From contig MEDY01000083.1 of NCBI GenBank assembly GCA_001724265.1, positions 62,001 to 85,874 on the forward strand: DNA of 23,874 nt, written 5' to 3'. Below, in pieces: positions 3,001 to 21,875 of this stretch. The position numbers and the translations under genes were made by a program. The notes below the pieces were generated by a model. That model had not been told where the DNA came from. It made no database searches and worked only from the letters and a program-made list of their open reading frames with translations. This DNA comes from Rhizaria sp. SCN 62-66 (taxonomy: Eukaryota). The first letter of the stretch is position 1. Every line of letters begins with the position of its first letter.

Positions 3001-6000
3001 CGACGCGCGCCTTGACGGTCTCCACAGTGGGCACAGCCTCGAGCAGCTGCGTCATGAGCTCACTCAGCGCGCGCGCGGCCTCGCCGAAGTTCCAGCTCTG
3101 CACCAGCGCACCGGCGCGCACGAGCTTGAGGTCGAAGTTGCTCTGGCCCGACTTGCCCTTGAGTCCGCGCTCGGCCGCCTCGAATGCGTAGTGCGGGAAC
3201 CCGTTCTGTAGCAGCTTAAACGCGAAGACGGTCGCGATCACGGGCACCTGCCACAGCGCGCGCTCGGCGTGCGCGTTGTTGCGCGCGCCCAGGAAGACCG
3301 TGAGCAGCGCCATGCCGCCCAGCGGGGGTGGTGACTGGCGCAGCGGGCCGCCGCCGCGCAACGCAACGGTGACCGTCTCGCGCAGCTTCAGCACTGTGCG
3401 CGTCGCAGAGCGGGCCTGGCGGCGCGCGGCCGCGGCGGCGGCTTCCTGGGTTGTCATCGCAGGCGCAGAAGCGGCCGCAGCAGCGGCAGCAACCGCAGCA
3501 GCAGTCACTGCGGAAGTCTTGCTACTACCGCTGCTTGCATGCCCCTGTCCCTGCGTTTGCAGTTGCTGAGACTGCGCGTTGTTGTTAGCGCTGGCGACGG
3601 CCGCGTTGACGATCTCGACCGCAGCGAGCGCCGCCGTCACAGCGGCCGCAGTGCCCGCAGCGGAGCCTGCAGCGGCTTCTTCTTCGGCCGCAAGCGAAGC
3701 AATGGCGACGCGCATCATCTTGCGCTCCAGCACAACGCGCGAGACCACCGTGGTGTCGAGGTTCGCGTTGGCGAGTTGCTCGTGCGCGCCGGGCAGGCCC
3801 AGCGTGACGCCGTAGAGCAGTGTGAGGTTCATCGCGGCCTCCTCGTCCTCCTCGCCGGCCCGGCCGCCCGCGCCGCTGTGCGACAGCGACGCGGCCTCGG
3901 ACTCGGCGGCGCGGCGGCGCTCGTGGCGCTCCACGCGCCGCTGCTGCCGCCGCTGCGAGCGCAAGTATTGGCGCCGCTGCCGCTCGGCGTCCTGCTCCTG
4001 TTCCAGCTGCCACGCCGCGCGCCGCACGGCGCGCTCCGCGCGGCGCTGGTTGCGCTCGGCCAGCGCCGTGGGCGACAACGGCGGACGGGCGGGCGAGTTC
4101 GCCGCAGCGCTGGCGTTGTTCGAGCGCGGTGAGGGCGGGGAGAGACTGTTGCGACGGCGCAAAGCCGCGTTGCTGGGAGTGATTCCGTCGCCAGTGCTTG
4201 CAGTGGCGTTGTTGGCCGGGCTGCGGGTGCTAGTAACAAGCCCATCGTCGTCTGAATCCGTGTCCATGAGCTCGAGCGGCATCGGCAGCAGGTCAGGCTT
4301 GAATTCGGCCAACAGCCGGGCTTGTGTGCCGTCACCGTCGCCGTCATCGCCTGCGATGCCAGCGCCGCCGTCGTCATCGTCGTCGCCGCCGTTGAAGTCG
4401 TCATTGTTGACGCCGACGGGCCGGAGCGCAACGACGGAGCCGCGCCTGCCGCTGCTCATCGCGTTGGCGACCACAGAGGCCAGGCTCCCGTGCGCTGCGG
4501 AAGCCACGGCCGCCGAGGTGGGGCTGGCGGAGCCGCGGTGGTGTCCGCTGCTGGAGCTGTGATGCATCGAGAGACTGCTGCGGCGCGCGCTGCCGAGGTT
4601 CGCCACCGCGGCAACCGCGGCTGCAGCGGCGGCGGCGTTGGGGCTCAGCGTCGTGCGGTGGGCGCTGGCGCTGTCGAGGTCGTTGAGGTTAATACTGCTG
4701 CGCTTGCCCGCGCTGCGCTGGCGTGCGTGTGTTGACTTGCGTTTGATATCCTCGTCATCATCATCGCCGTCGTCGCCGTTGTCGCTGGTGTTAAGGGCCC
4801 GGGGGGTGCGCTTGCTGTTGCTGCCGCGGCGACTCGTGCCGCGGTCTTGCTCGTTATCGCCGCTATTGCTCGCGATGTGTAGGTGGCTCGCCGAGGCCGA
4901 GGCAGACGCTGTGGCGGAGGACGAGCCGCTGACGCTGCTATCGCGCGCGCTGCGGCGGTGGCGGCGACGGTGGGGGTAGCCTTTATCGTAGCCAGCACCG
5001 TCACTATCACTATCGGTCTCCGTGTCAGTGTTTGTTTCGGTGTCGGTCTCAGTCTCAGTCTCGGTCTCCGTGTCGGTATAGTAGTCGTGGTGCTTATTGT
5101 CTTGCCAGCCACCTTCGCCTTCATTACCGTCTTGCTCATTGCCTTCGTCGTCGCCATCGTTGTCACCTTCGCCCATAGTGTCAGGCAAAGCGGCAGAGGT
5201 AAAGAATGACTCGTATTCAGCAAGCAAATCTTCCTCTTCTTGCACTTTATCATCGGCCTCAGCATCATCAGCATCCTCATCCTCATCCTCTTCTTCGTTT
5301 AGCTCCTGATTCTGCTGCTGCTGCTGCAAAAGCATCATGCGCTGCTGTTGCTGCGCGTCGGGCAGCGGAGTTGACGAGATCGACGCGAAGCTCACGCCGC
5401 TTGCGCCGTACTGCAGCTGCGTAGTGCTGGTGGAGCCGGAGCCCGAGGGGGGCGCGGGTGACGGGGCCATGCTGCGGCTGTGCGCTGGCGTGCTGCTGGC
5501 GGCGCTCGCGCCGCTGTGGTAGCGGCTGAGCCGCCTCGCGCCGAACTGTTGGCTACCGGAAACGGAGGTGTGTTCGAAGTTGTCGACACTTCCACGATCA
5601 ATAGATGGTCTCGCGGCAGGCTGCGCAATTCCAGCACCGTCGTTGACGTTATGATCGTTATTCTTGGCCTCCCATAGGACGGCGTCTTCCTCGTCTTCGT
5701 TGTATCCATGGAGATTGCTAACACTGTTGTTGTTCGTGTTGTTGTTGGTCATGCTAGGATAGTAGTCGTCGCTCTCGCCAGCCTGACCGAACATCCCCGC
5801 AGCGTTCATGTCCACCGCGACAGCCACGGTCTCGGGCTCGAACGCCGCGGCCAGCCGCTGCGCGCGCACACTGGCCGAGATGCCCAGCCCGCGCAGGTCG
5901 CTCTGCACGGCCGCGCGGCGCGCCGCGGGCGACATGTGCAGTACGCCGCCGCCAACGGCGCTGCTGCCGTAGCTCAGGCCGGGCGGACTGGCGGCGCGCT

Positions 6001-9000
6001 GCGCGAGCATCAGCGGCGAGGTCGTGCCGTTCGCGCTGCCGGTGGTGCTGAAGGTGCGGGAGCCGCCGTAGGGACTGGCTGAGCGCATACTCGGCGAGGG
6101 CCGCATACCACTGGTCACACCGGGCAATCCAAGCTGTTCGTCACCGTTGTTGTTCAAGTTAGCGCCAGTGAAGTTGTTCATGTCGTTGTTACGAGACGAA
6201 GACCTGGACTCGGCCCGCGATACGGCCCGGTCGAAGTTATTGAAGCCGCCTACGAAGCCCAAAGTAGGACTATTGTGAGCTGCAGGAGTGGCGCTGGAGA
6301 CGAGTGGCATCGCCAGCACGACGCCGTCGTTGCGGCGCGCCTTGGCGGCCTTGTACAGCGCAGCCCAGTCAATCTGCGGCATCGCGTCGAGCGTGCGCGC
6401 CACGGCGAGGCCGATGACGCCCGCGCGCTCGGCTGTGGAGCTGAGCACGCGCGCCCACGCCGCCTGCTGGCGCCCGCGGTAGCGCTTGTCGAGTGCGATG
6501 GCGTCGCGCTGCTGCAGCACGGCGACCGTGAGCCGCGACAGCATCCGCACCGTCGGGCGCGCGGCCGAGAGCGCAGCGCGGCGCAGCGTGGTGGTGCGCG
6601 AGGCCGCGTCGCGGATCGCGGTAAGCCAGAGCGAGAAGGCGCGGTAGTCGTTGTACGATAGAGAGGACTTGATGACCGTGAGCGCGAGGTGGCGGCGCGC
6701 GTGCCTGTCCGTGTCGTCGCTGCCAATATTTGCGCCGTCGCCGTCGACTGCGCAGACAGCGTTGGCGATGCTGTCACAAAAAAGAGGGTCGGTATTCCAC
6801 AGCAGGCGGACGTTGGCGAGCACGGAGCGCGACGGCGCTGCGGTCAGCACAGGCGCGCCGTGCGCGATCATCAGCGCCTCCATGCCGGCCACGTAGTACT
6901 CCTGCACCAGCAGTGGGCACGGCGGCTGCAGCAGCGGGTGCGCGGGTGCCGTGCCCGCGGACCACACCTCGGCCGTAGCCGGCGCGGCCGCCGTCCCCGC
7001 CGCGGACTGGCCGGGAGCAGAGCTGTGCATCAACGGCGAAGCGAGGGAGAACGGGGCCGGGGACGGGGCGTGCAGCATAGCCGCGGACAGCGCCGAGTAA
7101 AACGGCGACGCCGATGGAGACATCGAAGATGAGGAGTGCGACATATCGCCGCTCACCACAGACATATTGCCCCCAATCGCGCCGTTAACGGCGTTCGGGT
7201 TCGGGTGCAGCATTGGCGTCGAAGAAATAACAGCGTTACTCGAAGTGTTCGAGTTACTGGCAGCGTAAGGCGGGAATGCACCAGTCAGCGGCGCACGCGT
7301 TGCTGCGCTGGCAAAGGACACGATCGGTGTCGCTCCTACGCCCGCAATGACAACCGAGGGAGTCGCGGAAAAGGAAGCCCCATTCGAAGCAGCTGTATTC
7401 GTGATCGGGGTCACAATGTTGGTCGTGGCGGCGGCCGCGGCGGTTGTGCCAGGCGCGAAAGAAGGGAAGCTGGCAATGACAACGGCAGCGCGCGAGCGGC
7501 CGCCGTGGTGACCCATGCCTGAGGAACTCCGCGAAATCCCGTTGCTGCTCAGGCCGGAGCTGGGACTCGGGCTCGGGCTATGGCCGAGGGGAATCGGACT
7601 GTTGTTGCGGCGAGTAGCGACGACCGCGTTGCTGTCCACCGCCTGCTGTTGCTGCATCTGTAGCTGCGCCTGTTGCTGCACTTGCATGGATGTCAACCCG
7701 GTGCCTGCGCTGCTGGACGCGGGCTTGACGGAGAAGCCGTGGTTCGCGGCCACGGACTCGAACAGCGCGCCGACGCCGCTGCCGCCCGCGCCAGTGCTGC
7801 TGCTCTGATGCGATGACGAGCCGGCGACGGAACCGCTGTCGCTGCCGTTGCTGCAGACGCTGTTGGTGACCGAGTACGAGATCGTGGGCGCGGGGATGAA
7901 CGTGCCGTGAATGCCGCCCAGTAAGCCGGACGCCAGGTGCACCACACCGGGGGCGCCGCCAGCGCCAGCGCCAGGATGACCCGCAGCGTTCGCAGCAAAG
8001 TCTAGCGAGTTTTTGCGATTGTACAGCACCATGGCGCTGTTGGCGTCGGCGGGGTTGTGCGCGTTGGCGTGGGAAGACATCGGCAAGGACAACGACGTTC
8101 CAAGTGGCGGCGTGGGCGTCGGCAGGCGCAGCGGCGACGCGGGGTGAATGTTGTACATCTGACCGAGCGCGGGAGTGTTCAGGAAAGCGCCAGCACCGCC
8201 ATTAGCGCCCGCGGCTCTACCGCCGTTAGACTCCGTGGCCGACGCAGAATGATACTTCTTTAGAGAGCGCACCATTGCCAGTGACGAAGAAGGCCGCGAG
8301 CCCGTGTACTGTCCCTGCTGCGACAGCATCTGCATCTGCTGTTGCTGCATCAGCTGCAACTGCTGCTGCTGGAAAGTAGAGTTGTTGTAGTAGTTTGGAT
8401 TTGAGCTGAACGACAGCGCCGGCGTCGAGATCGGCGTGAGCGCAAAAAACTGGTCGTCGGCTTCTTCGCTGCAGAAGCTGCTGTTCGGTCCAGTTCCGAC
8501 GCCGTCAGTGCCAGCGTTGGCGCCGGAGGGGCCGGGGGCCGCGCGTGCCGTGCTGACCACAATGAGCGGCCGTGGCATCGGCGCGGCCGTCAACATCGGC
8601 GTATTGTGGAGAGACTTGTTGGCCGGGACAAGAGCGTTTCCCGCCACAACCGAGGTGGAAGCAGCGGCGGCAACGAACCAGACGTCGCCAGGCAGCGGCA
8701 TAGCGAGCGTCAACAGCGGATAAAGCCCCACTGCGGCCGTCAGCGCAGCTGCACCGGCCCAGCTGCCGACTGAGACCGCGCTGGCGCTGTTGCCATTGCC
8801 GTCAGCGGCCGTAGCGACGGCGGGTGACTGCGATAGAATGTGGATCAGCGCGCGGGCCTGCATCAAAGTCAAGTCATGCTCAGCAAGGACAGCGGTCATG
8901 TGCAAGGGCTGAAGAGCAGAGCTGTCGATTGAACTCTCGGCGGCGCTGTCATCAGTTGCAGAGACCTCGCTGATGGAGTTGATATTGACGTTGATAGGGC

Positions 9001-12000
9001 CGTTGTTGTTTGAAACGTTCAGGTCAAACTCATCAAACTCAGCAAATATGTCGATAGTGCCGCCGGCGCCCGCAGCGGCCACCGCCTCAGCAGCAGCTTC
9101 TGCGCGCGCCGCTGCATTCGCGGTCAACATGGGAGTGACGTCACCACTTGCTGCACCATTGTTGCTGTCGACAGCACTGCTGGGCATGTTGTACGCGCGC
9201 GCGCGTGCAGCGAGCCAGCGCTGCGCGCGCTCCCACCTGCGCTGGCCCTCGGCCTCGACGGCGGGCAGCACGGTAGCCGTGAGCGCGCGTTCGAGCAGAG
9301 CCGCGCGGGCCGTCGTCGCGGTGGCCAGCGTCGCCGCGGCGCCCGCCGAGCAATGCACGGCGGAGGACGCGGACACAGCGGGGGCCGAGGCAGGGACAGC
9401 AGGGGCAACCATGTCAGCAGTAGTCGTAGACTTCGTGGTCGTGCTTGCGGTGCTCTTCGTCGCAGCAGCAACGGCAACGTCAACAGAGCTCACGGGTTGC
9501 GAGGGCCACGTGCAGTCAATGTGCAGCGCAGAGCCGGTGCCACCGTTCGCAACAGCGCTGTTATTGGCGGGCGTGAAGAAGTGCTCTTGATCAGGCGACA
9601 GCTCAGTCACCGTGTACTTAAACTCAACAGCGAGGATCGCAGGGGCGCTAGACGAGTTGGCGTCCTGCCCAGCCACGGGCGAATAACTCCCATCGCTGAA
9701 TTTGTTGCCGTATGCAGACTTAGGCGCGACTGCAGTCAGCGTCGCGCTCACGGCATTGTACTCAGTCAGCGTCGGATGTGCCACCATCGACGGCGGCTGC
9801 GCGCCTCCGCTCACACCGGCGCCAGTGCCGGTGCCAGCACTGGCGCCGAGGCCGGGCAAGATCGACACCAGCTGCTCTACCGGCACAGACATGACGCGCC
9901 TCTGCACCGCGCTAGCGCCGGTACGGCTGCCGCCGGCGATCGCAGTGCTGACGCTGTTGCTGCCGAGGTTCGCGGTGAAGCGCGCGATGCGAGCGGCGGC
10001 GGCGGCGGGGTTAGCGGGCGCACAGGGAGGGGCCGGGGCGCGGCGGCGACCGGCCGCAAGCGCGAGCGCGGGCGCACGGGGCGCGCACGGCGGGGTCAGG
10101 GACGTGGCGTGAATCAACGCAGCGGTCACTGCGGCGTCCGTGAGAGGAACGAAGGTGCTCTTCACTGGGCTGCTGGCAACCACGGCCAGGTTCGTGCCCG
10201 TGGCGTTCATGTTCATGCTGTTGCGGAAGCCCGACGCGCTGGCGAGACTGGGCGCGCCAGCGCTCGACCGTGCAGAGCTGTTGCCGCCGTTTTCGCCGGC
10301 CGCACTCATGTCGGGGAAATGGGGGAACACTGCCAACAAAGCGGACATCGCAGTACGCTCGGTCGCCACGCGCACACCCCGAGTAACAGTCTGAGAGCTA
10401 GTGTTGCTGTGAGTTATCGGAGCAAAGCAGTAGCGTGTGCCGAGATCGCCGAGCCTTTTCTCCGCCTCAAACGCATTCGACAGCGACTGCAGCTGAGCCT
10501 GCGACTGCAACTGCGTCTGCGAGAGCGACGGCAAGAGTGACTGTGAGAGCGACGTCATGAGCCACGGCTCGCACAAACTCACGCCGCGGTGGCAGACTTC
10601 ACCCTCCAAAGGAGAGCTAGCTCTAACCGCGGCTGCGGCGTTGGTGCCGCTATCCGCCTTCACCGCGATCGTCGCAGTGGCCGAGGCCGTGGAGGTGGAC
10701 ATGGTTGACGTGAGGGCGGGACTGCCGGGCGCTGGCGACGCGCCGATGGGCACGATCGGCAGCTGCGGCGGCGCGAGCGGCGCCAGGACGGGGGAGCCGA
10801 GCGAATGGTGGCGCGAAAATTCGAACGGCGGGTTGACATCGTTCTGAGGCTGTTGTTGCGAGGTAGCAGTCGTGTAGTTGGCAGCGACTGTGTGCATTGC
10901 AAGGAGGTCGCCGAGACAGGTTTCGTTGACAGCAAGTGACGACAAATCATTGTTCTGACTCGTGCGTCCATTGATGCTGTTATTGTTACCGCGGAGAGAA
11001 GATGTACCGTGAACTGACGCGATGATCATATTGACTTCACTCGACATAAACATTGTGCTCAGAGAGTGCTCGCTGACGTTCACACCGTCATTGTCGCTGT
11101 TGTTATTGGCGGCAGTGAAGTGCGCGAGCAACGCATCAACAGTGTCAAAGTTAGTGGCGTTGACGCTGTTGCCAGTGGTATTACTGATGATGTTGCCGCT
11201 ACTGTCGTTGCTTGCGTTAGTGTCGTCCTCGCTCTGACTCAGAGTCCGCGCAAGGACGGGCCCCAGACTCCTCACGCGCGTCACAGTGGACAGCGGCCCC
11301 GGCGCAAGTCCATAACCGCCACTGATACTCGTGCTCGCACTCGCCAGCGCACTTGGCGCCGGCGTCGCAGTCACGAGCACGGTCACCGCGTCGACCGCGG
11401 CCCTGTCGGCCGCCGTGGCCGCGGCGAGCGCTAGCAGCGCCGCACCAAGCCCGGGCGCCCTGGCCGCGCGCATCAGCCCACGCACCGAGAGCGGCGCGTG
11501 CGTGAGCAACAGCACGGCCGGCAGCGCCTTGTGCAGGCACCGCAGCGGCGACACGGGCGCCGCCACGAGCGCGGGCACGACGGCCACGCCGGTCTGCGCA
11601 AGCAAAGCCCCGCGGTGGTGGCGCAGCTGGTGCTGCGGCGCCCCGAGTGGCCGTGAGCCCGTGCGCGAGCTGGCGCGCGTCTGCGGGGTCGACCGCGACA
11701 GCGACAGTGCACTGACAAAGCCCGACCCAGCGCCGAGACCGGTGTTGATGCCGCCGGCGTTGAAGGTGCCGGCAGAGGTGCCGGCGCGCGACTGCGAGCG
11801 CGATTGTGAACGCGACTGAGAGCGAGACTGCGACGGCGACTGCGACAGAGGTTGAACGGCGCCGAACGTCACATGAGTGCTCGCAATGGCGTTGTTGTTG
11901 TGTGCCGAGTTAGTGAGACTGCTGTGCAGGGCGCTAGGCGTCTGCAGCAGATTGAACACCGGGGAGACGCCGAGTCTGCGGGGCGGGCTGCCCAGCCCCG

Positions 12001-12064
12001 GGGAGCCGGCGACCGCTGCCGCCGCAGTCAGACTGGCCAGCGCCATTGCGATCGCGCTTGGCAG
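2..12064 (-). CDS. In-frame continuation of the giant ORF (4021 codons, runs off the window edge; first ATG at 12046); low-complexity, acidic, charged-helix and TPR-like segments
   Basis: Same frame as 12065..20944. I translated 11821-12064, 6241-6960, 3061-3420, 2281-2580, 1141-1320 and 1-180 by hand and found no stops. The ORF track lists no complete minus-strand ORF in this frame below 12065, which is expected only if the frame stays open to the edge. Confidence 0.85.
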   Translation of the reverse strand, partial: MPSAIAMALASLTAAAAVAGSPGLGSPPRRLGVSPVFNLLQTPSALHSSLTNSAHNNNAIASTHVTFGAVQPLSQSPSQSRSQSRSQSRSQSRAGTSAGTFNAGGINTGLGAGSGFVSALSLSRSTPQTRASSRTGSRPLGAPQHQLRHHRGALLAQTGVAVVPALVAAPVSPLRCLHKALPAVLLLTHAPLSVRGLMRAARAPGLGAALLALAAATAADRAAVDAVTVLVTATPAPSALASASTSISGGYGLAPGPLSTVTRVRSLGPVLARTLSQSEDDTNASNDSSGNIISNTTGNSVNATNFDTVDALLAHFTAANNNSDNDGVNVSEHSLSTMFMSSEVNMIIASVHGTSSLRGNNNSINGRTSQNNDLSSLAVNETCLGDLLAMHTVAANYTTATSQQQPQNDVNPPFEFSRHHSLGSPVLAPLAPPQLPIVPIGASPAPGSPALTSTMSTSTASATATIAVKADSGTNAAAAVRASSPLEGEVCHRGVSLCEPWLMTSLSQSLLPSLSQTQLQSQAQLQSLSNAFEAEKRLGDLGTRYCFAPITHSNTSSQTVTRGVRVATERTAMSALLAVFPHFPDMSAAGENGGNSSARSSAGAPSLASASGFRNSMNMNATGTNLAVVASSPVKSTFVPLTDAAVTAALIHATSLTPPCAPRAPALALAAGRRRAPAPPCAPANPAAAAARIARFTANLGSNSVSTAIAGGSRTGASAVQRRVMSVPVEQLVSILPGLGASAGTGTGAGVSGGAQPPSMVAHPTLTEYNAVSATLTAVAPKSAYGNKFSDGSYSPVAGQDANSSSAPAILAVEFKYTVTELSPDQEHFFTPANNSAVANGGTGSALHIDCTWPSQPVSSVDVAVAAATKSTASTTTKSTTTADMVAPAVPASAPAVSASSAVHCSAGAAATLATATTARAALLERALTATVLPAVEAEGQRRWERAQRWLAARARAYNMPSSAVDSNNGAASGDVTPMLTANAAARAEAAAEAVAAAGAGGTIDIFAEFDEFDLNVSNNNGPINVNINSISEVSATDDSAAESSIDSSALQPLHMTAVLAEHDLTLMQARALIHILSQSPAVATAADGNGNSASAVSVGSWAGAAALTAAVGLYPLLTLAMPLPGDVWFVAAAASTSVVAGNALVPANKSLHNTPMLTAAPMPRPLIVVSTARAAPGPSGANAGTDGVGTGPNSSFCSEEADDQFFALTPISTPALSFSSNPNYYNNSTFQQQQLQLMQQQQMQMLSQQGQYTGSRPSSSLAMVRSLKKYHSASATESNGGRAAGANGGAGAFLNTPALGQMYNIHPASPLRLPTPTPPLGTSLSLPMSSHANAHNPADANSAMVLYNRKNSLDFAANAAGHPGAGAGGAPGVVHLASGLLGGIHGTFIPAPTISYSVTNSVCSNGSDSGSVAGSSSHQSSSTGAGGSGVGALFESVAANHGFSVKPASSSAGTGLTSMQVQQQAQLQMQQQQAVDSNAVVATRRNNSPIPLGHSPSPSPSSGLSSNGISRSSSGMGHHGGRSRAAVVIASFPSFAPGTTAAAAATTNIVTPITNTAASNGASFSATPSVVIAGVGATPIVSFASAATRAPLTGAFPPYAASNSNTSSNAVISSTPMLHPNPNAVNGAIGGNMSVVSGDMSHSSSSMSPSASPFYSALSAAMLHAPSPAPFSLASPLMHSSAPGQSAAGTAAAPATAEVWSAGTAPAHPLLQPPCPLLVQEYYVAGMEALMIAHGAPVLTAAPSRSVLANVRLLWNTDPLFCDSIANAVCAVDGDGANIGSDDTDRHARRHLALTVIKSSLSYNDYRAFSLWLTAIRDAASRTTTLRRAALSAARPTVRMLSRLTVAVLQQRDAIALDKRYRGRQQAAWARVLSSTAERAGVIGLAVARTLDAMPQIDWAALYKAAKARRNDGVVLAMPLVSSATPAAHNSPTLGFVGGFNNFDRAVSRAESRSSSRNNDMNNFTGANLNNNGDEQLGLPGVTSGMRPSPSMRSASPYGGSRTFSTTGSANGTTSPLMLAQRAASPPGLSYGSSAVGGGVLHMSPAARRAAVQSDLRGLGISASVRAQRLAAAFEPETVAVAVDMNAAGMFGQAGESDDYYPSMTNNNTNNNSVSNLHGYNEDEEDAVLWEAKNNDHNVNDGAGIAQPAARPSIDRGSVDNFEHTSVSGSQQFGARRLSRYHSGASAASSTPAHSRSMAPSPAPPSGSGSTSTTQLQYGASGVSFASISSTPLPDAQQQQRMMLLQQQQQNQELNEEEDEDEDADDAEADDKVQEEEDLLAEYESFFTSAALPDTMGEGDNDGDDEGNEQDGNEGEGGWQDNKHHDYYTDTETETETETDTETNTDTETDSDSDGAGYDKGYPHRRRHRRSARDSSVSGSSSATASASASASHLHIASNSGDNEQDRGTSRRGSNSKRTPRALNTSDNGDDGDDDDEDIKRKSTHARQRSAGKRSSINLNDLDSASAHRTTLSPNAAAAAAAVAAVANLGSARRSSLSMHHSSSSGHHRGSASPTSAAVASAAHGSLASVVANAMSSGRRGSVVALRPVGVNNDDFNGGDDDDDGGAGIAGDDGDGDGTQARLLAEFKPDLLPMPLELMDTDSDDDGLVTSTRSPANNATASTGDGITPSNAALRRRNSLSPPSPRSNNASAAANSPARPPLSPTALAERNQRRAERAVRRAAWQLEQEQDAERQRRQYLRSQRRQQRRVERHERRRAAESEAASLSHSGAGGRAGEEDEEAAMNLTLLYGVTLGLPGAHEQLANANLDTTVVSRVVLERKMMRVAIASLAAEEEAAAGSAAGTAAAVTAALAAVEIVNAAVASANNNAQSQQLQTQGQGHASSGSSKTSAVTAAAVAAAAAAASAPAMTTQEAAAAAARRQARSATRTVLKLRETVTVALRGGGPLRQSPPPLGGMALLTVFLGARNNAHAERALWQVPVIATVFAFKLLQNGFPHYAFEAAERGLKGKSGQSNFDLKLVRAGALVQSWNFGEAARALSELMTQLLEAVPTVETVKARVDAARDAGGRRNKHRRSGSGTYIGLNLAAAASANAGGFNSTMGGARSSMSNKTGTNLAAATPAPAQVSLVATPTYVAGSGGYDMYPPIPNGISRATVAQTQWPRSPFQVPFTSSTNVNSNANTNASAVATLTAAADSDAAPRPMLLSPILAPWTCDRSLAAVALASAVEVSLLLDFELALWHMQMSRVWALTADLVKQQAALLAEPLSRRLLAAMAARFYAYAAYLLSPVYSLPSPLPNIALASTDNTSTSANMNTSSDSANNGADAFVLPDVFPNSRSGLTSPRDGGSSLNTDPSGNSGISAAALSAAHSHRAVLAAWLARVKWQGVHTSTALGALPNYFTTSSLSTNAANVTNTTGSANTNFATNANNANNASTTASSSGTNAARMGEGGLTSIFSTITHGHKLAAAAAAAAAAAASAASASGSNFMMGTGSGSMGNSTSVSNSSAPTTGATAPTMTVVALSPGGSPGPGRHVRTLSTGVPRGSLTGNVTVAAHGHSAHGSQNLARLPSGLARTPSPSQLTRSLSGARLRAPAASSSSATAATAAVAATASADRGVMLSQSPLSEHSSVNAFFGADSLSRLLSNAAVTHLLAGEPGRAVQVAREAVARARSMSAALYCQTRALAPWSFSPSDASNLLSLNHFSAALQNNNAAGKGASGKSVERKGTGRKTSSNISNNSSGSGGAAGANGVDDLESARALALTLAIPQKQQQKQQQQPIVSSNMLLFPSPFSVAITSTLASAAASAPALRNAINSTADDSAASVAAPVALDSLSLRVTEHNKPSRFSTPSSLALSGVGAGQLTQLIAAATYSSSTNGAGSGSGVGVVAQALAQQLLAESEALVTLGVVASTAVLWGLVTEGVINSGNSNASSVASVEDNDKATALPLSRSGKRPIVPSTNASSASAGAAAGTSSSGASASLSSSVGGSEPRSVVSISPVTLGLYRMLLPLVTELSATATALPSDLHAWLLTLATLPVATGAPPPPAVAPAALQATASGAG
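1160..1270 (-). other. TPR-like motif within the giant ORF
   Basis: Manual translation: SLSRLLSNAAVTHLLAGEPGRAVQVAREAVARARS, resembling the LxNxAxxxxxxGxxxxAxxxxxxA TPR pattern. Confidence 0.45.
3050..3240 (-). other. TPR-like helical repeat pair within the giant ORF
   Basis: Manual translation: VIATVFAFKLLQNGFPHYAFEAAERGLKGKSGQSNFDLKLVRAGALVQSWNFGEAARALSEL. The small/hydrophobic residue spacing resembles TPR helix pairs. Judged by eye only. Confidence 0.45.
5000..5296 (-). repeat. Acidic low-complexity tract with hexamer-derived (TE/TD)n repeat
   Basis: Translation EEEDEDEDADDAEADDKVQEEEDLL...GEGDNDGDDEGNEQDGNEGEGG...YYTDTETETETETDTETNTDTETDSDSDG; gtctca/gtctcg hexamers at about 5046-5070. 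Confidence 0.75.
11786..11845 (-). repeat. Coding (SQSR)n repeat
   Basis: Translation SQSPSQSRSQSRSQSRSQSR, encoded by synonymously diverged 12-nt units. Confidence 0.75.
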
Positions 12065-15000
12065 CTACGACTGATGAAACTGGTGGGGCTGAATCTGTTG
12101 CTGCTGTTGTTGCTGTTGCTGCTGGAGCAGAATGCGAGCGGGCGGAGGGCTGGGGGACGCCGTCACTTGATGCGTGGTCGACGTGTTGCTGTTCTGCCTG
12201 GACTGCAACCTCCGCACCGGCGGCTGCAGCGACTGTGCCGCGGACGCCGACGCCGAGGCCGTCACCGATGACGACGTTGTCGCCGGCGCAGAACCCGATG
12301 ATCCAGATGCAGAGGTTGGCCCAGAGGTCGACAGCAGTGACCGTGCCTGCGACACCACAGGCTGTTTGCAGTACAGCGCAGCGCGCGGGTTATACCGGAA
12401 CACCGATGGCGCAAACAATGCGCTCGTTTGCGCCGTTGCACCGGTGCGGATGACCGCGCCCGCGTGGTACGGCAGCGCGGCGGCGAGCTGAGGCACCGCA
12501 GCAACGTGGTCAAAGGCGACCTCGAAGTTCAGCCGCGCCGCCGCGAGAGCCGCGGCGGACCACGCGGGCGCGGGGACCGGGGTGGCGGCGGCGACTGTGG
12601 GCAGCGAGGCCGGGTCCGGCTGGGGGAACGCGCGGGATGTGAGAGGACGGTTGTGGGGCATGAGCAAGGAGTCCAGGCGCGGGACACCGGTGTTGGGCGT
12701 GGTGGCAATGGTGTAGCCAAGCATATCATGGGCGCTGTAGTTGACGTCACTGTTGCAGCGGCTCTCGCTCCGGCTCGCGTGGACATTTGTCGCAGCATGA
12801 CTCGCCGCCTTGCTGTGCGCAGCGCTGTTGCGAGTGTTGGTGTTAGGCGCACTGCTGTCGTTGCCGCCTTCATACAGAGACGAGTAAAACGGCTTCACGT
12901 CAGTTGCGACAGCGTTGTACTGCCGCAGCACTGCGCGCACGCGGGCCCGGATCACTGCGCGCTGCCGCAGCAGCACCGCGACGCGCAGCATCTTGCGCGC
13001 GGCGGCGGCGGCGACGCGGCGGGCCAGGCCGGCGCTCAGCAGCTCGCGCTGTGCAGCGAACCAAGCACTTCCACCGCGCGCACCAGCGCCAGCGCTGATT
13101 GATGACGCAGGTACAGAGGTGGAGGCAGTGGCCGTCGTCTCGAACGCCTCCGCAGGAAGCGAGCGCAAGTGCGTCAGAACCGCTGTGTAGACAGCGGCAA
13201 GCGCCGTATGCATGCGGCGCGCGCGCAGCAGCAGCCACAGCGGGGGCGCGCTAATGTCGCTCACAGCATCCCGGCCGTTACTATTGATGGCGTTCAGCGG
13301 AGTCTTCGCGGTACTAAAGCTGGCCGAGGAGTCCGTGCTGTTGTTCAACGTGACCGTAAATGCGGGCTCGCTAGACTCGGAGTAAAGCAGCTCGGAGGCG
13401 AGCGCGAGCTCCGGCTCCGGCAGGCCGCGCAGCACGGCGAGCTCGGCCGCGACCGGCATGGCCGCGCTGCCGCTGGCGCCGTCGCCGCGCAGCTTCGAGG
13501 TGCGCGCGCGGTCGACCGCGTGGGCGCCGGAGACAAAGACGTTGCTGTTGGCTACGCTCTCGTCATACAAGAGGCCAAGCGCAGCCGCATTGGACTCAAC
13601 GCTGCCACTAGCGGTACCGGGAGCATGATCACTGTTCACGTTGCTGTGGCTCTTGTTCGTGAGGAGCGCGCCGAATGTGAAGCCCTTGGCGACGCACACC
13701 GGCGCGGCCCCGGCCTCGCGCTTCTCGCCCTCAGTCAGTACCAGCGCCGCCGCGCCCCAGTTGCCCTCGGCGTCGGCTTCCGAGCCCGCAGCCGGGTCGG
13801 CGGCGGCCTCCGCGGCAGTCTCCCAGCCCTGCACGCGACCGAAACCGCAGAACACGTCCGCGCTTGCAGCGGCCGCGGTGCAAAGAGGCGCGCCACGGGC
13901 CGCGGCGGCTGCGGCTGCAGCGGTGGTCGTGACGGCAGCGACGCTGGTGCTGGCACTGGCGCTGCTGGAGACGGCGGAGGGAGGCAGGCCAAGCGCGCAG
14001 AGCAGGGGCGCCATGAGCGCGGAGGTCGCAGACAGGGCGGCTGCGGACGGGGGCTGCAGCAGCGCAAGACTCGCACTCGGACTAGCGCTAGTTGCCGAGT
14101 TGCTGTGTGACTTAACGTTGCCACAAGAAGCTGAGTAAACAAGACCGTTTGTAGCACTCACGAGATTCGTGGTAGTCGTTGTACTGGTCGTGTTGTTCGC
14201 AACAGCATTATTGTTGGTGTTCTTGGTGAGATTGCTCGTAATGGCAGAGAGTGCAGTCGTCGTCGTTTGCACGCCGGTCCAGAGTTGCGCGAGCGGAATC
14301 ATAAGCACACTTTCACTGACACTAACATTAGTTGCCGTCGCAGCAGCGACGGAAGCAGCACTGTCGGTGAAAAAAGGAGTGGCACCAGCAGTACTAGTGT
14401 TGCTGTTTTTGTTCAAAGGTGAACTCAAACGATACGCCCAAACACCGTTTCCAACAACAACACCACATCCGCTGATGAGATCATCAGTCTCATCGTAAAC
14501 GTCGTCACCCGAAGTCGCGGCTTGACTTTGATTCGCGAAGTACGCAATCTCCCGCGCGACGAGCGCGTGCACCTGCTGCAGCAGCACGGTGAGCACGAGC
14601 GCGCGCCGCGACAGCTGCGCCAGCGCCAGCGCGCGCGCCACAGCCGCGACGGCAGCCGCGGGCAACCCTAGCCCGGCGACCGCGGCGCCCACGGCGCCCG
14701 CCGCGTGGGCGTGGGCCGAGCCGGGCGCGAAGAGAGAGAGCCAGCCGCAGCCCTCAGCGGACCGCATGAGGGACAGGTGCTGGCTGTGCGCGCGCGGGTT
14801 GTAGCCGGAAGAAGTCAGGCCGCCCGGCGCCGAGGCAAAGCCGTCTGGAGCGGTAGTGAAGCCGCATGTGACGCCTGAGGCAGTGAGGCCGCGAGGGAAA
14901 AAGACGGGCCACAAACTAGGCACGATGACCTTGTCGCTCGTGTTCACACTCATCACAGGGTTCACGGTGCTACCATTCGCGCTAGTGCTGTTAGACGCAA

Positions 15001-18000
15001 GGGGTAGCGCGCCGTACTTGACAAGAGGACTCATGTTGGCGCTGAGGTCAGCCGCAATGATATTGGCATTCGCTTCGAGCGTGACGACGTCCAGCGGAGA
15101 CACCCCCCGGGCGCTCGCACTGGCAGTCGCCCCAGCCACAGTATCACCGTCCGTGGCAATCGCCGTCGCTGTCCTGAGCACGGAGCTCTGCACGGCGGCG
15201 TTCTCGTCGGCCGCGTGCTGCGTGAAGTGCAGTGCGCGCGCGATCTCAGCAAAACACACAGGGTTAGTCGCGTATGCCCACTCTAGCGACGCGCCGGCAC
15301 TCGCGCCAACCTCGGCCAGCGCGCGCGCGGCCACCCAGTCAAGGGCGCAGCCCTCGGTACGAGCAGACGCAGCGCTGTTGGTAGCAGCAGCGGAATCCGA
15401 GGCGGAGTTGGACGCGGATGCAGAGGCTGAGCTTGTCGCGGCTGCGTTGGTGGCCGCCGCGGTCGCGAGCGCGGCGGGCGAGAGCAGGGCAAGCAGTGAC
15501 GGCAGCAGCGTGTGCGCAGCGGCGTCAGGGTAGTACGACAGCCGCGCGACAGCCTTACTATTCACACTGGCGTTCGCATTCGCATTTGCACCAGTGCTAT
15601 TATTGTTGTTAGCGTTAGCAGCATTTGAGGCAAGGAGCTTCATTGTGTTGTTAAGCACACTCTTGACATCACTCACATTTGCAGTGTTGATGTTGTTATT
15701 CGCCAAGTAGAACGCGATGCGGCCAAGTTCAGGCCCCAAAGGCGGCACACCCACGGGAATACCGACCTTGCCAGTGCTACAGTCACTCTGTTCCTTCTGC
15801 TCCTTCTGCTCACAATGGCTCGAACTCGCACTGGAGCTCGCGCTGCCGAACAAAGTCGGGTTCGCGGCCGCGGCGACCGACGCGGCCGCGGTGGCGATCA
15901 CGAGCGCGCGCGCCTCGGCCGCCACATCGCTGTAGAGAGCGAGCGCGGGAGGCGGCACGGCGCCGGGGCCAGCGTACAGCACGCCCCAGTGTTCTAGCGT
16001 CGCCAGCGCGCGGGACACCGAGCGCAGCTGCGTACGGCGGGCGCGGACGGCGGCGGCGGACTGTGGGTCACTGCTCTGCAGCAGAGCGGCCTCGGCCTTG
16101 CCCACAGCAATATTCGCCTGGGCGCTCACACTCGCACTTGCGTTGGAGCCCGCGCTACTCCGGCCGGCGTTCGAGCTCGAGCTGGGGTTGGAACCGGCGC
16201 TGACGGCCCCTGAGCGCAGCGACTGGCGCTGCTGCAACTGCTGCATCTGCAGTTGCTGGTAGTGGTGGTTGCGTGCCGCCCACGTGAGCACCTCACCGGG
16301 CGCGCTGGCCAGCAGGAGCTCGACGCGCCGGGCCGCCACGCGCCGCTTGAGCCCCTGCTCGGCGCTCGCGGCGCAGCGCAGCAGCGCATCGCTCTCGACG
16401 GCGGCGGCCAGCGCGGGCAGCTTGCCGACGGCCTGCGCGCGCATGCGGCCCTGCCAGTCGGCCGTGTACGCGCCGCGCATCGCCCGGGACACGGCGTCGG
16501 CGCCTGCAACCGCGGTGGCAGCCGGCGCGGGAGCGCTGGCATCGTAGGTCGTCGTTGCGGCGGCCACGGCGGCGGCAGCCGCGGCGGTCGCGGCGTCGGC
16601 ATCCCCGGCGTCGGCCGCGGCGGCGACAGCGGTCGTGACTGCTGCGTTGGCGGCGGTCACGGCTGCGCGCCACTCGGCGTCCGCGCGCGTCACCGCGGCC
16701 GCCGTGAGGTGCGACAGCGCGCAGGCCCAGGCGTAGTCGAGCGCGGCCGGCAGCGCGGCGCCCGCGGTGGCAGCGGCGACCGCGCGCGGGAGCGACGCCG
16801 CAAAGGCCGCCACGAGGTCCGCGGGGGCGGGGGGCGCGCGCTCGGCCAGCGCGGCGTGGAGAGCCGCGACAGGCTCCGACACGGCGGCCGCGGCGCTGAG
16901 ACCGGCGGCGTCGTCGCCGGCGTCGGCCGTGTCCACGGGGGTCGTGGCAATGGACACCGCGTCGTCGTCATTGTCGTCGTCTTCGTCGTCGTCGTCGTCG
17001 CTGCCGCTGCCGTCGCCCGCGACGTCGTTGTCGCTGTTGCTGTTGCTGTGCGGGGTGCTGATGTGCTCGACGTGCGGCGCGTTGTCTGGAGTGCTGACGT
17101 ACCCGGTGGCGGCGCCGGTGGCCGAGCCCGAGTGCGAGTGGCCACCAGAGACAGCGTAGTAGTCGTCGTCACTGTTGCTGTTGCTGTTGCTCGCGCCGCC
17201 CCGCGCCCTGCCCTGGTGGACTTTAGCTGCCCTGACCTTGGCCTTGACCTTAGCCTTGGCTTCGAGAGCGTCCGCCTTGGCCTTGGCGCGCACCTTGGCT
17301 TTGGCCTTGGCCATATCGCCCACGGTCACGGCACCGGCCGCGCGCACCGCAGTGACGACCCTGCCGACGTGCCCCGCGGCCAGCAGCGCGCTCGCGTGCG
17401 CCGCGAAGAAGGCTTCGTACAGCCCCGCCACGTAGCGCCGGCCGCGCGCCGCCGAGGCCAAAGCGGCGGCGGCGGCGGCGGCGCGGCGGCGCGCAAGGCG
17501 GGACTCGATCGCGCGCAGCTGGCGCTGAGCGGGCGCGGGGGCCGCGGGCAGCGCCGGCCACTGCAGGTGAGTCGGCCGCGCCGCCAGCGCGAGCGCGCTA
17601 GTCGCCGCGGGCGCAGAAATGCTTCCACTCGTCGCGCTGGCGGTATTGTAGTTCGCGTTGCCCATGACGGAGATACGCTGAGGCACAGCGCCGTTAGTCT
17701 TCGGCGACAGAGCGCCGGCCGCAGTCGCGGTCTCGGTCGGGCTGCTGCCGCCAGTGATGTTACTAGCGCTGCTGCTGTTGTTCGAGGGCTGCTCGGCCCA
17801 CTGCACAGTGAGCTGCGCCAGCGTCAGCCGCAGCTTGTGCAGGGCGGCGGCGACGACGACGTCGGCAGGCGCGGTCTCGCAGTTGACGGTCACAGCTGCG
17901 CCGCCACTGGCGCTCTTGCCCGCTTTCTGAGATTGCAGGTGCTGTTGCTGCTGGGTGAGCAAAGAGGGCAGCGGGGGAAAGAAGGACTCGGGGACGCCAA

Positions 18001-20944
18001 AGCGTGCCTTGGAATAGCGCCCTTCGTCATCATCCTTATTGACAGTCGAGTTATTTGCACTCGTGGTGCTTGTACCCTCAGTCGCCGTCTTAGCATTCAC
18101 GCTGCCGCTGTTTTTCTCAGCAGTAATGCGTGCGCGCAGCAGCGCAAGTGAGCGCGCCAGCTTGTCCTCGATGCGCGCCTGCTGCGCGGCGGTCACTGGC
18201 AGCGCGACGGCGGCTACCGCGGCCACGGCGGCGTCGCTCGTCGTCGCGGTCGCGCTTGCGGCCGCAGAGTGGGGCAGGTCGGTGCTGGAGCAAGCGCTGG
18301 CGGGGCCGCGAGCAGTTGCGGGCGCAGAAGGCTGCTGCTGCTGTTGCTGTGTCTTCTTGTTGTTAGGGTCAGCGCTTGCCTTTGCACTGGTGACAGTGCC
18401 TGCAGGGACACCACCACTAGCACGCTTACTAGCAGTTGCAGCAGCAGCAGAAGTAACGGAAGTGACAGCGGGTGCGGAATCAGACTTCTCGGTGTCGTCA
18501 TTTGCAACGCTATGTTTTTCATCTTTCTCCGGCTGTTGCTGGTCCTGTGCCGCGCCATCAGTGCGCGTGACTTGGTTGATCACGGCGGCCAGATGCTCGC
18601 TCACGCGCGCAGCGTCGGCTTTGACGCTCTCCAGGTACTGCTCGAACGACGACTTCACCGCGGGGGTCGTGACGCGCGCAGAGGCGCTGACGCTGGGGAC
18701 ACTCACGACAATCTTCGACGGCCCACCCGCAGTCGCCGCAGCGGTGGCACCAGTACTGTTGACAGTATTCATGTTGCTTGTGTTGCCGTAGCTGCTGTTA
18801 GTGTTGTTGTTGTTGTTGACGATGTTGGTGTTGAGTTTGAGCATCGGACGCGCGTTGGCAGTCTGCGCAAGCCTCCTCACTGCACTGGCCGACAGCGCAC
18901 CCACCGCTGAAGCGCCAGAGCTAGAGTCAGCGCCGGAACTTGAGCTAGAGCTTGAGTTAGAGCTTGGGCTAAATGTAGCGGCCGCAGTAGAGCTTGTGAG
19001 AGCCGGTGTCGTTGCTGCGTTTGGTGGCGCAACGTACCGAATGGGTCCATTCCAGCGCCCCGCCGCGCTCGTCGCGGGGACGGTGCTGCCGTGGCTGCCC
19101 GCACCTGCAATGGCGCTGGTGCCGTTCGCGGTGTGATTGGCTTTCGCGGCAGAGTTCGCGCTGACCGGCTGCTGCCGCTGTTGCTGCTGCAAGTTGGGAT
19201 TCGGGGGCCGGACAGAGACGAGCGCAATCGGGCCGTACGGCTTGCTGCTGGAAGCTAGTCCGCCTTGCTGCTTCTCGGAAGTCAGGCCGTCGTCTTCAGT
19301 ACTCGTGAGGTACGCAGGAATCGCCGGCGACGTTTCGATCGCGGTGTCCAGCGCGTCGTATTTGGACAGCACAACGGCCGACAGGCGAGCAAGCTCGGCC
19401 CGCGTCTCCTCCTCGGTCGCGTTCTCGGCGTCGGCGTCGTCTTTGGCGTTCGAGTCGCTGTGAACGTTGTCGACGCGCTGCTTCAGGACGTTGAGCCGCC
19501 CCATCGCGGCCACGTAGCGGCGCATCGCCGCGTGCGCCGAGGCCGCCACGGCGCCGTGCGGATCCCGCAGCGCCTCGTGGAGCCGGTAGATGTGCGCCTG
19601 GTATTGGCTGCGCTCAGTTTCATCAGCACGTGCACTTGTACTCGCAGTCGCGCTCGCAGTGACAGCGGTGCCTGGCTGCTGCAAGGCGTTGCCGTTCACG
19701 AGTGCCGCAGTTGCGTTGGAGCTTGCTGCAGCAGTGTCCGACGCGGCGGCGGCAGGGGCGAGCAGAGACATGCCTAGCGCCCGGGTCTCGGCGTCAGCCC
19801 CAGACATGAACAGCCGGTTGTCCCCGCCGTTGCCGCTGCTGCTTTGGTTGTAATCACCACAGGGCAAGGCAACGGTGGGGTCGTTGAGCGCGTGCCTGAG
19901 CGCGCGCGAGCAGAGCGTGTTGGCGAGCACGACGCAGCCCAGCGCGCCGCGGTCCGAGGCAAGCAGCGGCAGCAGCAGCGAGACCGAGGCGTCGCTGACG
20001 GGGTTGTCGCTCAGGTCTAGCACGGCCAGTGCGCGCCCCCACCGCGCGCGCCCACCAGTGCCGCTGTCGCGGACGAGCGTGGCGACGGCGGCGGCGGCGG
20101 GCTCGAGCGCGGGCGGCCGCAGACCGGCGGGCAGCAGGGTGGCGACGAGCGGGAACAGCGCGGCGTCGGTCAAGCCCAGCGAGGCCAGCCGCAACAGCTG
20201 CAGCGCGGGTGCGCGGGACAGCAGCGCCGCCAGCACGGGCGTCTGGGCGGCCGGCAACAGCCCGCCGCCGCCATCGCGGCTGCCGCTGATAGAGTCAATG
20301 CTGCTGTTGCTGTTGTTGCTATAAGAGCTCTCGCTGTTGCTGTGACTCCTGCTGCTGGTGGGGATGCTTGTGTCAGTGAATGACCATTGATCGTCGTCAA
20401 AGCTCAGCGGCGCACGCGCAAACGCCGCGCCGCTGTTCCCGGCGCCGGCGCTGCTGCTGGAGTCACCGGCGCTGCCGCTGCCGATGCCGGCGAGAGCGGA
20501 GAGCAGCGGCGGCGCGGGCGAGACAACCGCGGCGGCGGAGCAGAGCGCCAGGAGCACCGAGAGCGGGGCCTGCGCGGCGGCACGCTCGGCGGGGTCCATG
20601 GGGGACTCGAAGGCAGCGCGGCCGGGGGGGCTGCGGGGAGCTGCCGGAGGGCTGGCTGCCGGGCGGGCGAGAGCGCGGGAAGGAGGGAGGGAGGAAAAGA
20701 GGCGGATATGCACTGGGTGGAGGTGTGCTGGGACTCTGCACGGGGGAGAACAAGTAATAAAACAAGAAAATGAAGTCATGTGCAGGTCACAGTTTGGTGA
20801 GGAGAGCGGTATGGAGGACACAGAGAGGCAAAAGCGCGGGGAGGGCACGACTTGCCAGAGTAACTGTTCGTCCACCGAAGCTCGCTGTTCGCTTGAATGG
20901 GGTGCAATAGGACATCCGTCAACAGAGACACGCATTCTTGTCAT
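12065..20944 (-). CDS. Giant low-complexity protein, N-terminal part (2959 aa from ATG 20944, or 2844 aa from ATG 20599, MDPAERAAA), with RI-like LRRs; ends at an in-frame TAG that may not be the true stop
   Basis: 8.9-kb stop-free frame in the ORF track with protein-like Ala/Ser/Asn/Gln composition and an LRR consensus near the N-terminus. The start is uncertain because 20656-20848 looks intron-like (pyrimidine tracts ending in CAG). Confidence 0.85.
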   Translation of the reverse strand: MTRMRVSVDGCPIAPHSSEQRASVDEQLLWQVVPSPRFCLSVSSIPLSSPNCDLHMTSFSCFITCSPPCRVPAHLHPVHIRLFSSLPPSRALARPAASPPAAPRSPPGRAAFESPMDPAERAAAQAPLSVLLALCSAAAVVSPAPPLLSALAGIGSGSAGDSSSSAGAGNSGAAFARAPLSFDDDQWSFTDTSIPTSSRSHSNSESSYSNNSNSSIDSISGSRDGGGGLLPAAQTPVLAALLSRAPALQLLRLASLGLTDAALFPLVATLLPAGLRPPALEPAAAAVATLVRDSGTGGRARWGRALAVLDLSDNPVSDASVSLLLPLLASDRGALGCVVLANTLCSRALRHALNDPTVALPCGDYNQSSSGNGGDNRLFMSGADAETRALGMSLLAPAAAASDTAAASSNATAALVNGNALQQPGTAVTASATASTSARADETERSQYQAHIYRLHEALRDPHGAVAASAHAAMRRYVAAMGRLNVLKQRVDNVHSDSNAKDDADAENATEEETRAELARLSAVVLSKYDALDTAIETSPAIPAYLTSTEDDGLTSEKQQGGLASSSKPYGPIALVSVRPPNPNLQQQQRQQPVSANSAAKANHTANGTSAIAGAGSHGSTVPATSAAGRWNGPIRYVAPPNAATTPALTSSTAAATFSPSSNSSSSSSSGADSSSGASAVGALSASAVRRLAQTANARPMLKLNTNIVNNNNNTNSSYGNTSNMNTVNSTGATAAATAGGPSKIVVSVPSVSASARVTTPAVKSSFEQYLESVKADAARVSEHLAAVINQVTRTDGAAQDQQQPEKDEKHSVANDDTEKSDSAPAVTSVTSAAAATASKRASGGVPAGTVTSAKASADPNNKKTQQQQQQPSAPATARGPASACSSTDLPHSAAASATATTSDAAVAAVAAVALPVTAAQQARIEDKLARSLALLRARITAEKNSGSVNAKTATEGTSTTSANNSTVNKDDDEGRYSKARFGVPESFFPPLPSLLTQQQQHLQSQKAGKSASGGAAVTVNCETAPADVVVAAALHKLRLTLAQLTVQWAEQPSNNSSSASNITGGSSPTETATAAGALSPKTNGAVPQRISVMGNANYNTASATSGSISAPAATSALALAARPTHLQWPALPAAPAPAQRQLRAIESRLARRRAAAAAAALASAARGRRYVAGLYEAFFAAHASALLAAGHVGRVVTAVRAAGAVTVGDMAKAKAKVRAKAKADALEAKAKVKAKVRAAKVHQGRARGGASNSNSNSDDDYYAVSGGHSHSGSATGAATGYVSTPDNAPHVEHISTPHSNSNSDNDVAGDGSGSDDDDDEDDDNDDDAVSIATTPVDTADAGDDAAGLSAAAAVSEPVAALHAALAERAPPAPADLVAAFAASLPRAVAAATAGAALPAALDYAWACALSHLTAAAVTRADAEWRAAVTAANAAVTTAVAAAADAGDADAATAAAAAAVAAATTTYDASAPAPAATAVAGADAVSRAMRGAYTADWQGRMRAQAVGKLPALAAAVESDALLRCAASAEQGLKRRVAARRVELLLASAPGEVLTWAARNHHYQQLQMQQLQQRQSLRSGAVSAGSNPSSSSNAGRSSAGSNASASVSAQANIAVGKAEAALLQSSDPQSAAAVRARRTQLRSVSRALATLEHWGVLYAGPGAVPPPALALYSDVAAEARALVIATAAASVAAAANPTLFGSASSSASSSHCEQKEQKEQSDCSTGKVGIPVGVPPLGPELGRIAFYLANNNINTANVSDVKSVLNNTMKLLASNAANANNNNSTGANANANASVNSKAVARLSYYPDAAAHTLLPSLLALLSPAALATAAATNAAATSSASASASNSASDSAAATNSAASARTEGCALDWVAARALAEVGASAGASLEWAYATNPVCFAEIARALHFTQHAADENAAVQSSVLRTATAIATDGDTVAGATASASARGVSPLDVVTLEANANIIAADLSANMSPLVKYGALPLASNSTSANGSTVNPVMSVNTSDKVIVPSLWPVFFPRGLTASGVTCGFTTAPDGFASAPGGLTSSGYNPRAHSQHLSLMRSAEGCGWLSLFAPGSAHAHAAGAVGAAVAGLGLPAAAVAAVARALALAQLSRRALVLTVLLQQVHALVAREIAYFANQSQAATSGDDVYDETDDLISGCGVVVGNGVWAYRLSSPLNKNSNTSTAGATPFFTDSAASVAAATATNVSVSESVLMIPLAQLWTGVQTTTTALSAITSNLTKNTNNNAVANNTTSTTTTTNLVSATNGLVYSASCGNVKSHSNSATSASPSASLALLQPPSAAALSATSALMAPLLCALGLPPSAVSSSASASTSVAAVTTTAAAAAAAARGAPLCTAAAASADVFCGFGRVQGWETAAEAAADPAAGSEADAEGNWGAAALVLTEGEKREAGAAPVCVAKGFTFGALLTNKSHSNVNSDHAPGTASGSVESNAAALGLLYDESVANSNVFVSGAHAVDRARTSKLRGDGASGSAAMPVAAELAVLRGLPEPELALASELLYSESSEPAFTVTLNNSTDSSASFSTAKTPLNAINSNGRDAVSDISAPPLWLLLRARRMHTALAAVYTAVLTHLRSLPAEAFETTATASTSVPASSISAGAGARGGSAWFAAQRELLSAGLARRVAAAAARKMLRVAVLLRQRAVIRARVRAVLRQYNAVATDVKPFYSSLYEGGNDSSAPNTNTRNSAAHSKAASHAATNVHASRSESRCNSDVNYSAHDMLGYTIATTPNTGVPRLDSLLMPHNRPLTSRAFPQPDPASLPTVAAATPVPAPAWSAAALAAARLNFEVAFDHVAAVPQLAAALPYHAGAVIRTGATAQTSALFAPSVFRYNPRAALYCKQPVVSQARSLLSTSGPTSASGSSGSAPATTSSSVTASASASAAQSLQPPVRRLQSRQNSNTSTTHQVTASPSPPPARILLQQQQQQQQQQIQPHQFHQS
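12096..12125 (-). repeat. Mixed CAG/CAA poly-Gln tract (Q10) just upstream of the in-frame TAG
   Basis: Plus strand ctgttgctgctgttgttgctgttgctgctg; translation RILLQQQQQQQQQQIQPHQFHQS*. Confidence 0.85.
17218..17314 (-). repeat. Basic Ala-Lys dipeptide repeat
   Basis: MAKAKAKVRAKAKADALEAKAKVKAKVRAAKV; cttggc hexamer repeats on the plus strand. Confidence 0.8.
19910..20240 (-). other. RI-like (ribonuclease-inhibitor class) leucine-rich repeats, about 2-3 units
   Basis: LAALLSRAPALQLLRLASLGLTDAALFPLVATL; ALAVLDLSDNPVSDASVSLLLPLL; ALGCVVLANTLCS. These match LxxLxLxxNxL followed by the helical segment typical of RI-like LRRs. Boundaries are approximate. Confidence 0.7.

Positions 20945-21844: not shown

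Positions 21845-21875
<31 letters not shown>

Follow-up and report, generated by a model that had tools for sequence, protein, structure and literature searches.

A giant minus-strand reading frame with one internal TAG

We analysed a 23,874-nucleotide stretch of contig MEDY01000083.1 of Rhizaria sp. SCN 62-66 (assembly GCA_001724265.1, positions 62,001 to 85,874 of the forward strand), referred to below as the window, whose minus strand carries a giant reading frame interrupted by a single TAG codon. Around this codon the minus strand reads CAT CAG TCG TAG CTG CCA AGC GCG ATC GCA ATG, with the TAG at 12067..12065. It is codon 2960 when counted from the first ATG of the frame, at 20944, and codon 2845 when counted from the ATG at 20599, which is the start of a public protein model described below. 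The open frame upstream of the TAG (frame A, 12068..20599, minus strand) comprises 2844 codons from the ATG of that model, or 2959 codons from the ATG at 20944, and encodes an Ala/Ser-rich sequence of low complexity. The downstream open frame (frame B, 2..12064, minus strand) continues in the same frame as A for 4021 codons and is still open at the window edge. The giant frame contains one stop, the TAG, in 6981 in-frame codons, whereas each of the other five frames contains 84-273 stops over the same span, with a longest open run of 645 codons; the giant frame is therefore far beyond what chance would produce.

On its 5' side the TAG is preceded by a Q10 tract, (CAG/CAA)10 at 12095..12124 (minus strand), with 9 codons between the end of the tract and the stop. 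On its 3' side it is followed by C at +4, and the first ATG downstream (12046..12048, minus strand) lies in frame, 6 codons further on, leaving only 15 nt between the TAG and this ATG. The initial annotation of this DNA had reported the TAG and the frame around it (at least 2844 codons before and 4021 after), the Q10 tract, the context QIQPHQFHQS*L and the C at +4, all of which were confirmed by inspection of the sequence and by the frame counts.

The giant frame remains open for a further 115 codons 5' of the annotated ATG (20600-20944, minus strand). As the composition of this segment differs from that of the remainder, being Cys/Pro/His/Phe-rich, it is probably a 5' leader and not coding. 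Two repeats within frame B, a codon repeat (SQSR)x5 that begins 74 codons past the TAG (11786-11845, minus strand) and an acidic TE/TD tract (5013-5077, minus strand), are both in keeping with the low complexity that marks the protein throughout. Opposite the giant gene lie several long antisense reading frames, such as that at 16253-18151 (plus strand), encoding up to 632 amino acids. They are most probably not genes but a consequence of the high GC content and of repeated Ala/Ser codons.

A search for relatives in public protein collections returned a single related protein, P0003 (source label ENA, 2843 amino acids, encoded on a 65,627-bp contig). P0003 has the sequence of frame A, beginning with the ATG at 20599 and finishing on an identical last residue (..FHQS). 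The sole difference between the two over the 2843 residues is one Ala fewer in P0003, within a GCG run at 17463-17491 (minus strand), which, on comparison of the two sequences, suggests that the record may derive from another assembly, haplotype or isolate of this organism. Since P0003 ends at the TAG, its annotators took this codon as a stop. Residues 2500-3500 of the read-through frame, with the TAG entered as X, gave no match among 737 scored candidates from a word-indexed search of proteins of 3839-12217 amino acids, and residues 4460-6981 gave none among 748 scored candidates from proteins of the same size range, searched in the same way. When residues 2400-3560 were compared with shorter proteins, the one match among 8000 scored candidates was P0003 itself, from the same locus. 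An exhaustive phmmer search with residues 5850-6620, in frame B, against 1.84 billion representatives was likewise negative. In the collections searched we found no orthologue of A or B from another organism, and no public protein model for the 12 kb of frame B.

Coding properties were followed across the TAG. When the frame was divided into blocks of 200 codons, the G+C content at third codon positions (GC3) was 0.7-0.9 in most of them, upstream and downstream of the stop alike, with a range of 0.47-0.88 within frame B. Relative synonymous codon usage (RSCU) in B correlated with that in A with r=0.96 (0.86 over the 400 codons that follow the TAG), while off-frame readings of B gave correlations with A of 0.59 and 0.54. 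The GC content of the giant frame is 66-68%. It amounts to 66% within 150 nt on either side of the TAG, and 150-nt windows passing over the codon range from 59 to 71%, with no GC dip at the junction. The initial annotation had remarked that the stop is not set in an AT-rich spacer, and this was borne out by comparison with the three spacers of the window, which are 295-716 nt long and have a GC content of 42-54%. No AATAAA occurs on the minus strand from 2 to 20600, and an AT-rich intergenic spacer with 3' end and promoter signals was not found at the TAG. A scan for bacterial promoters and terminators around the codon found nothing, a result that is irrelevant to a eukaryote. These observations support A and B as one coding unit and not as two ordinary genes. 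An origin of A and B as tandem duplicates was ruled out, as the two are not paralogues (best BLASTP E=1.2).

It has been considered that A and B may nevertheless be two functional units, arisen by gene fission or simply adjacent, with B expressed from the ATG at 12046 by means of an internal promoter or of termination followed by reinitiation. The position of this ATG, 6 codons past the TAG and flanked by G at -3 and G at +4, would suit such an arrangement, and so would the public annotation, which ends the protein at the TAG; A and B, having no similarity to each other, could be distinct modules. However, the junction has neither a spacer nor AT-rich sequence resembling a promoter or untranslated region, the two frames coincide, codon bias is continuous from one to the other, and the collections searched contain no protein annotated for B. 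We regard separate expression of B as improbable.

No Pfam family was matched by the whole of A or the whole of B, nor by residues 115-400 or 215-400, and sequence searches of the PDB gave no match. Residues ~215-400 obtained an ESM Atlas score of 0.95 to LRR_6 clusters with only 157 of 256 features in common, which we treat as a lead only. The last 462 residues gave a TPR_12 hit below threshold (E=0.057, 14.1 bits against a Pfam cutoff of 30.1). No TPR was detected in residues 5860-6210 by Pfam or by PDB sequence search, and no TPR profile was matched at its curated threshold. For residues 4670-4890 the best ESM Atlas score was 0.77, which is uninformative. Two single-sequence AlphaFold models were helical and unreliable (predicted local distance difference test values of 44 for the candidate LRR region and 43 for the candidate TPR region), and too poor for a fold search. 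The proposal that the stop separates an LRR-only from an LRR+TPR isoform is therefore weakly grounded: neither label reaches a curated Pfam threshold, and what lies behind them is the LRR_6 language-model lead and the sub-threshold TPR_12 hit.

Age and origin of the stop

We asked how long frame B could have stayed intact if it had been freed from constraint. Enumeration showed that a random substitution in B has a 2.0% chance of creating an in-frame stop. With substitutions alone, B would remain intact with P>=0.05 up to a neutral divergence of ~1.2%, a limit that falls to ~0.28% when indels are added under assumed values of 0.1 for the indel:substitution ratio and 70% for the share of indels that shift the frame. 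The intact state of B fits a lesion of polymorphism age or an error. Either the TAG is of that kind, or B is under selection because it is translated, and the window alone cannot separate the two.

We consider it probable that the locus holds one giant orphan gene with an ordinary premature UAG, due to a recent nonsense change or to a consensus or base-call error. A and B would then belong to the same intronless gene, an orphan of low complexity that is no shorter than 6981 codons, and its TAG would have arisen very recently by a single-base nonsense change in the genotype that was sequenced, or else would be an artefact of consensus or base calling. Under the standard code, ribosomes would stop at the TAG and release a 2844-residue N-terminal product, and the 12-kb downstream frame would owe its open state to the short time available for further damage, or to the lack of any real lesion. 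Both termination at the TAG and the recency of the change are what we infer. The P0003 model, in which a 2843-residue protein ends at the TAG, counts in favour of this explanation. Between its two forms, a consensus error is less likely than a recent nonsense change, because a second record shares the same end. The finding is real, though probably ordinary. A nonsense allele or base-call error had been put forward in the initial annotation as equally plausible with recoding; its plausibility stands, but we would not rank the two as equals and rate it clearly the most plausible.

The locus resembles a premature termination codon of the type found in a nonsense allele, or in a unitary pseudogene at birth, in that there is a single in-frame stop in a long and otherwise intact frame, with no downstream lesion. 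In addition, TAG is one transition away from CAG, which is abundant here (199 in the frame counted from the ATG at 20599), and one transition away from TGG. It departs from that type in the 3' context of the stop, which is unusually close to a readthrough motif, and in that the lesion is common to the second record P0003. Three points weigh against a recent lesion or error. The 4021 intact, codon-biased codons downstream have precisely the appearance expected of a translated extension. The TAG is followed by C at +4 and by a hexamer close to CARYYA and CARNBA, where a random nonsense change would rarely fall. Finally, P0003, although a variant in the Ala run, ends at the same residue, which argues against a one-off base error if the two records are independent.

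If the TAG is a nonsense allele or an error, its importance is one of annotation. In the public model, a clean coding frame of more than 12 kb goes uncalled and, since the model stops at the TAG, one of the largest genes of the genome is represented by its first 40%.

Alternative explanations: readthrough, editing, reassignment and splicing

As an alternative to a recent lesion or error, the TAG may be a maintained recoding site that switches between isoforms, either through low-level readthrough, to which the CARYYA-like hexamer and the C at +4 would contribute, or through editing confined to a particular stage. We judge such a site unlikely. If it were real, the switch would lead from a 2844-residue LRR-like protein to a giant of more than 6980 residues and would be the longest stop-codon-gated extension known in a cellular gene. 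Should the stop prove to be conserved, and to be bypassed by readthrough or editing, this would be an extreme example of a cellular gene whose isoforms are controlled by one stop, and also a convenient natural reporter of the fidelity of termination in a little-studied eukaryote.

In the case of programmed readthrough, most ribosomes would give the 2844-residue product and a fraction would continue for more than 4021 codons by means of a near-cognate tRNA. The hexamer directly 3' of the TAG, CTGCCA (12059..12064, minus strand), agrees with five of the six positions of both CARYYA and CARNBA; the mismatch is at position 2, with U instead of A, and neither motif is present exactly. These motifs and the effect of C at +4 are described in PMC4132726. 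Within the giant gene, 102 of the 6863 in-frame hexamers (1.5%) do as well against CARYYA and 207 of 6863 (3.0%) against CARNBA, and C occupies the +4-equivalent place at 1614 of 6863 positions. The hexamer match, a mild oddity noticed post hoc, is the only result that leans towards readthrough. A mutational scan is also reported in PMC4132726 in which all six hexamer positions matter, which makes the mismatch at position 2 a point against readthrough. Predicted RNA structure was of no help to this explanation, as a 131-nt fold starting 3 nt before the TAG gave z=-0.95 and local folds centred on the codon (windows of 41-101 nt) gave z values of -0.3 to -1.4, none of them significant.

The locus shares with the readthrough signal of tobacco mosaic virus (UAG-CARYYA; UAG-CARNBA in yeast), as described in PMC4132726, the UAG itself, the C at +4, five of six hexamer positions and an in-frame coding extension. 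The coding signature expected of such an extension is indeed present, with 4021 open codons, a GC3 of 0.47-0.88 and the RSCU correlation of r=0.96, so that the downstream frame is wholly open with its codon bias kept, and the same stop is found in the second record, P0003. The locus differs from that signal in the U in place of A at position 2 and in the length of the extension. Known readthrough extensions of cellular genes are of tens to hundreds of residues and not of more than 4000, and one of over 4021 codons would be far longer. Taken together, the near-miss of the hexamer and the lack of a significant 3' structure amount to no positive evidence for the TAG as a readthrough or recoding site, and we consider programmed readthrough quite unlikely. 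The interpretation offered by the initial annotation, of one long protein or an isoform switch, is supported only in part. The single coding unit is retained; the recoding on which the switch would depend is without positive evidence, and the domain labels attached to the isoforms are below threshold.

Editing was considered in the form known from filamentous ascomycetes, where adenosine-to-inosine (A-to-I) conversion changes UAG to UGG. Here, it would restore the frame at a particular life stage, and the full-length protein would be made only then. According to PMC11156358, adenosines edited to inosine in fungi tend to be preceded by U at -1 and to lie in hairpin loops, and about 71 genes of Fusarium graminearum need such editing of a premature stop, UAG being the stop that it repairs. 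The present locus is similar to the stop-correcting editing described there in having an in-frame UAG followed by an intact frame. The U at -1 is also present, although this is trivial for any UAG. On the other hand, nothing places the window among filamentous ascomycetes, and the A of the UAG is predicted to form a 1-nt bulge in a weak stem in all three centred local folds (z = -0.3 to -1.4) and to be paired in the 131-nt fold, in no case lying in a hairpin loop. Editing at this codon, which the initial annotation had raised, is very unlikely.

Under reassignment, this organism would read UAG as an amino acid, such as Gln or Leu, and would terminate at UGA and/or UAA. Both complete genes of the window end in TGA, and reassignments limited to UAG do exist (PMC5304391). 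Those of Iotanema spirale (Gln) and of the rhizarian exLh (Leu) resemble the present case in the in-frame UAG and in the UGA that ends the neighbouring genes. In Iotanema spirale, UAG accounts for ~8% of Gln codons, and a set of 126 genes contained 204 UAGs in frame (PMC5304391). The giant frame contains 201 CAG, 54 CAA and one TAG, the TAG being 0.4% of the three taken together. At the usage of I. spirale ~20 TAGs would be expected, against the one seen, and usage at this locus is ~20-fold lower (0.4% versus ~8%). Frequent in-frame UAGs in ordinary genes were not observed either, as neither of the two neighbouring genes contains a TAG in frame. No tRNA gene and no Rfam family was detected in the window, the tRNA result saying nothing about the rest of the genome. 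One TAG in 6981 codons, neighbouring genes free of TAG and no tRNA gene in the window all speak against reassignment, and we hold it to be extremely improbable. That heavy use of UAG as a sense codon was to be doubted had been anticipated, and for this frame such use is excluded, with one TAG against 255 CAG and CAA codons. The background offered with it (UAG read as Gln in Iotanema spirale and as Leu in a rhizarian, and UAG-to-UGG editing in fungi) agrees with PMC5304391 and PMC11156358.

Finally, the TAG could lie inside a small spliceosomal intron that keeps the frame. When 400 nt to each side were considered, the TAG fell inside 239 GT..AG spans that preserve the frame, but chance predicts that many. 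Ten of the 239 pass a filter for the 5' site, with a GC content of 64-67%. No GTACG donor occurs within 400 nt upstream of the TAG, and the only donor of GTAC type, at 12374, defines spans of 318-705 nt that are again 64-67% GC and exon-like. The real introns of the window start with GTACG, are 109-183 nt long and have a GC content of 31-54%, and no candidate over the TAG combined a GTACG donor, an AG acceptor and an AT-richer composition. An intron at this position is hardly credible. The probability that is left after a recent lesion or error and the alternatives discussed above belongs to explanations beyond these.

Neighbouring genes, introns and spacers

Two small genes occupy the right-hand 3 kb of the window. 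A homologue of BLOC-1 subunit 2 is encoded in three exons at 22860-23574 (minus strand) and ends in TGA. Its exon 2 matches positions 18-66 of the Pfam family BLOC1_2 and its exon 3 positions 67-96, each alone being below the curated cutoff. A protein phosphatase 1 inhibitor of the Ypi1/PPP1R11 type is encoded in two exons at 21240-22143 (plus strand) and also ends in TGA, its exons matching positions 3-35 and 37-56 of PPI_Ypi1 (PF07491, 40.3 bits for exon 1). As the Pfam profile positions are consecutive from one exon to the next, the exon structures of both genes are confirmed. The earlier statement that both complete neighbouring genes terminate at TGA was likewise borne out.

The three introns of these genes, at 23297-23405 and 22965-23147 (minus strand) and at 21598-21754 (plus strand), are all of the GT..AG type and far richer in AT than the exons. 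All start with GTACG, which may be a lineage-specific donor consensus, the number of introns being three. Together, the small genes split by GT..AG introns, the AT-richer introns and spacers, and the 66-68% GC of the giant frame indicate that the window comes from a GC-rich, intron-poor eukaryote. The Ypi1-type gene is divergent from the giant gene, and its product carries a long Ala run and a His/Gly-rich C-terminal tail.

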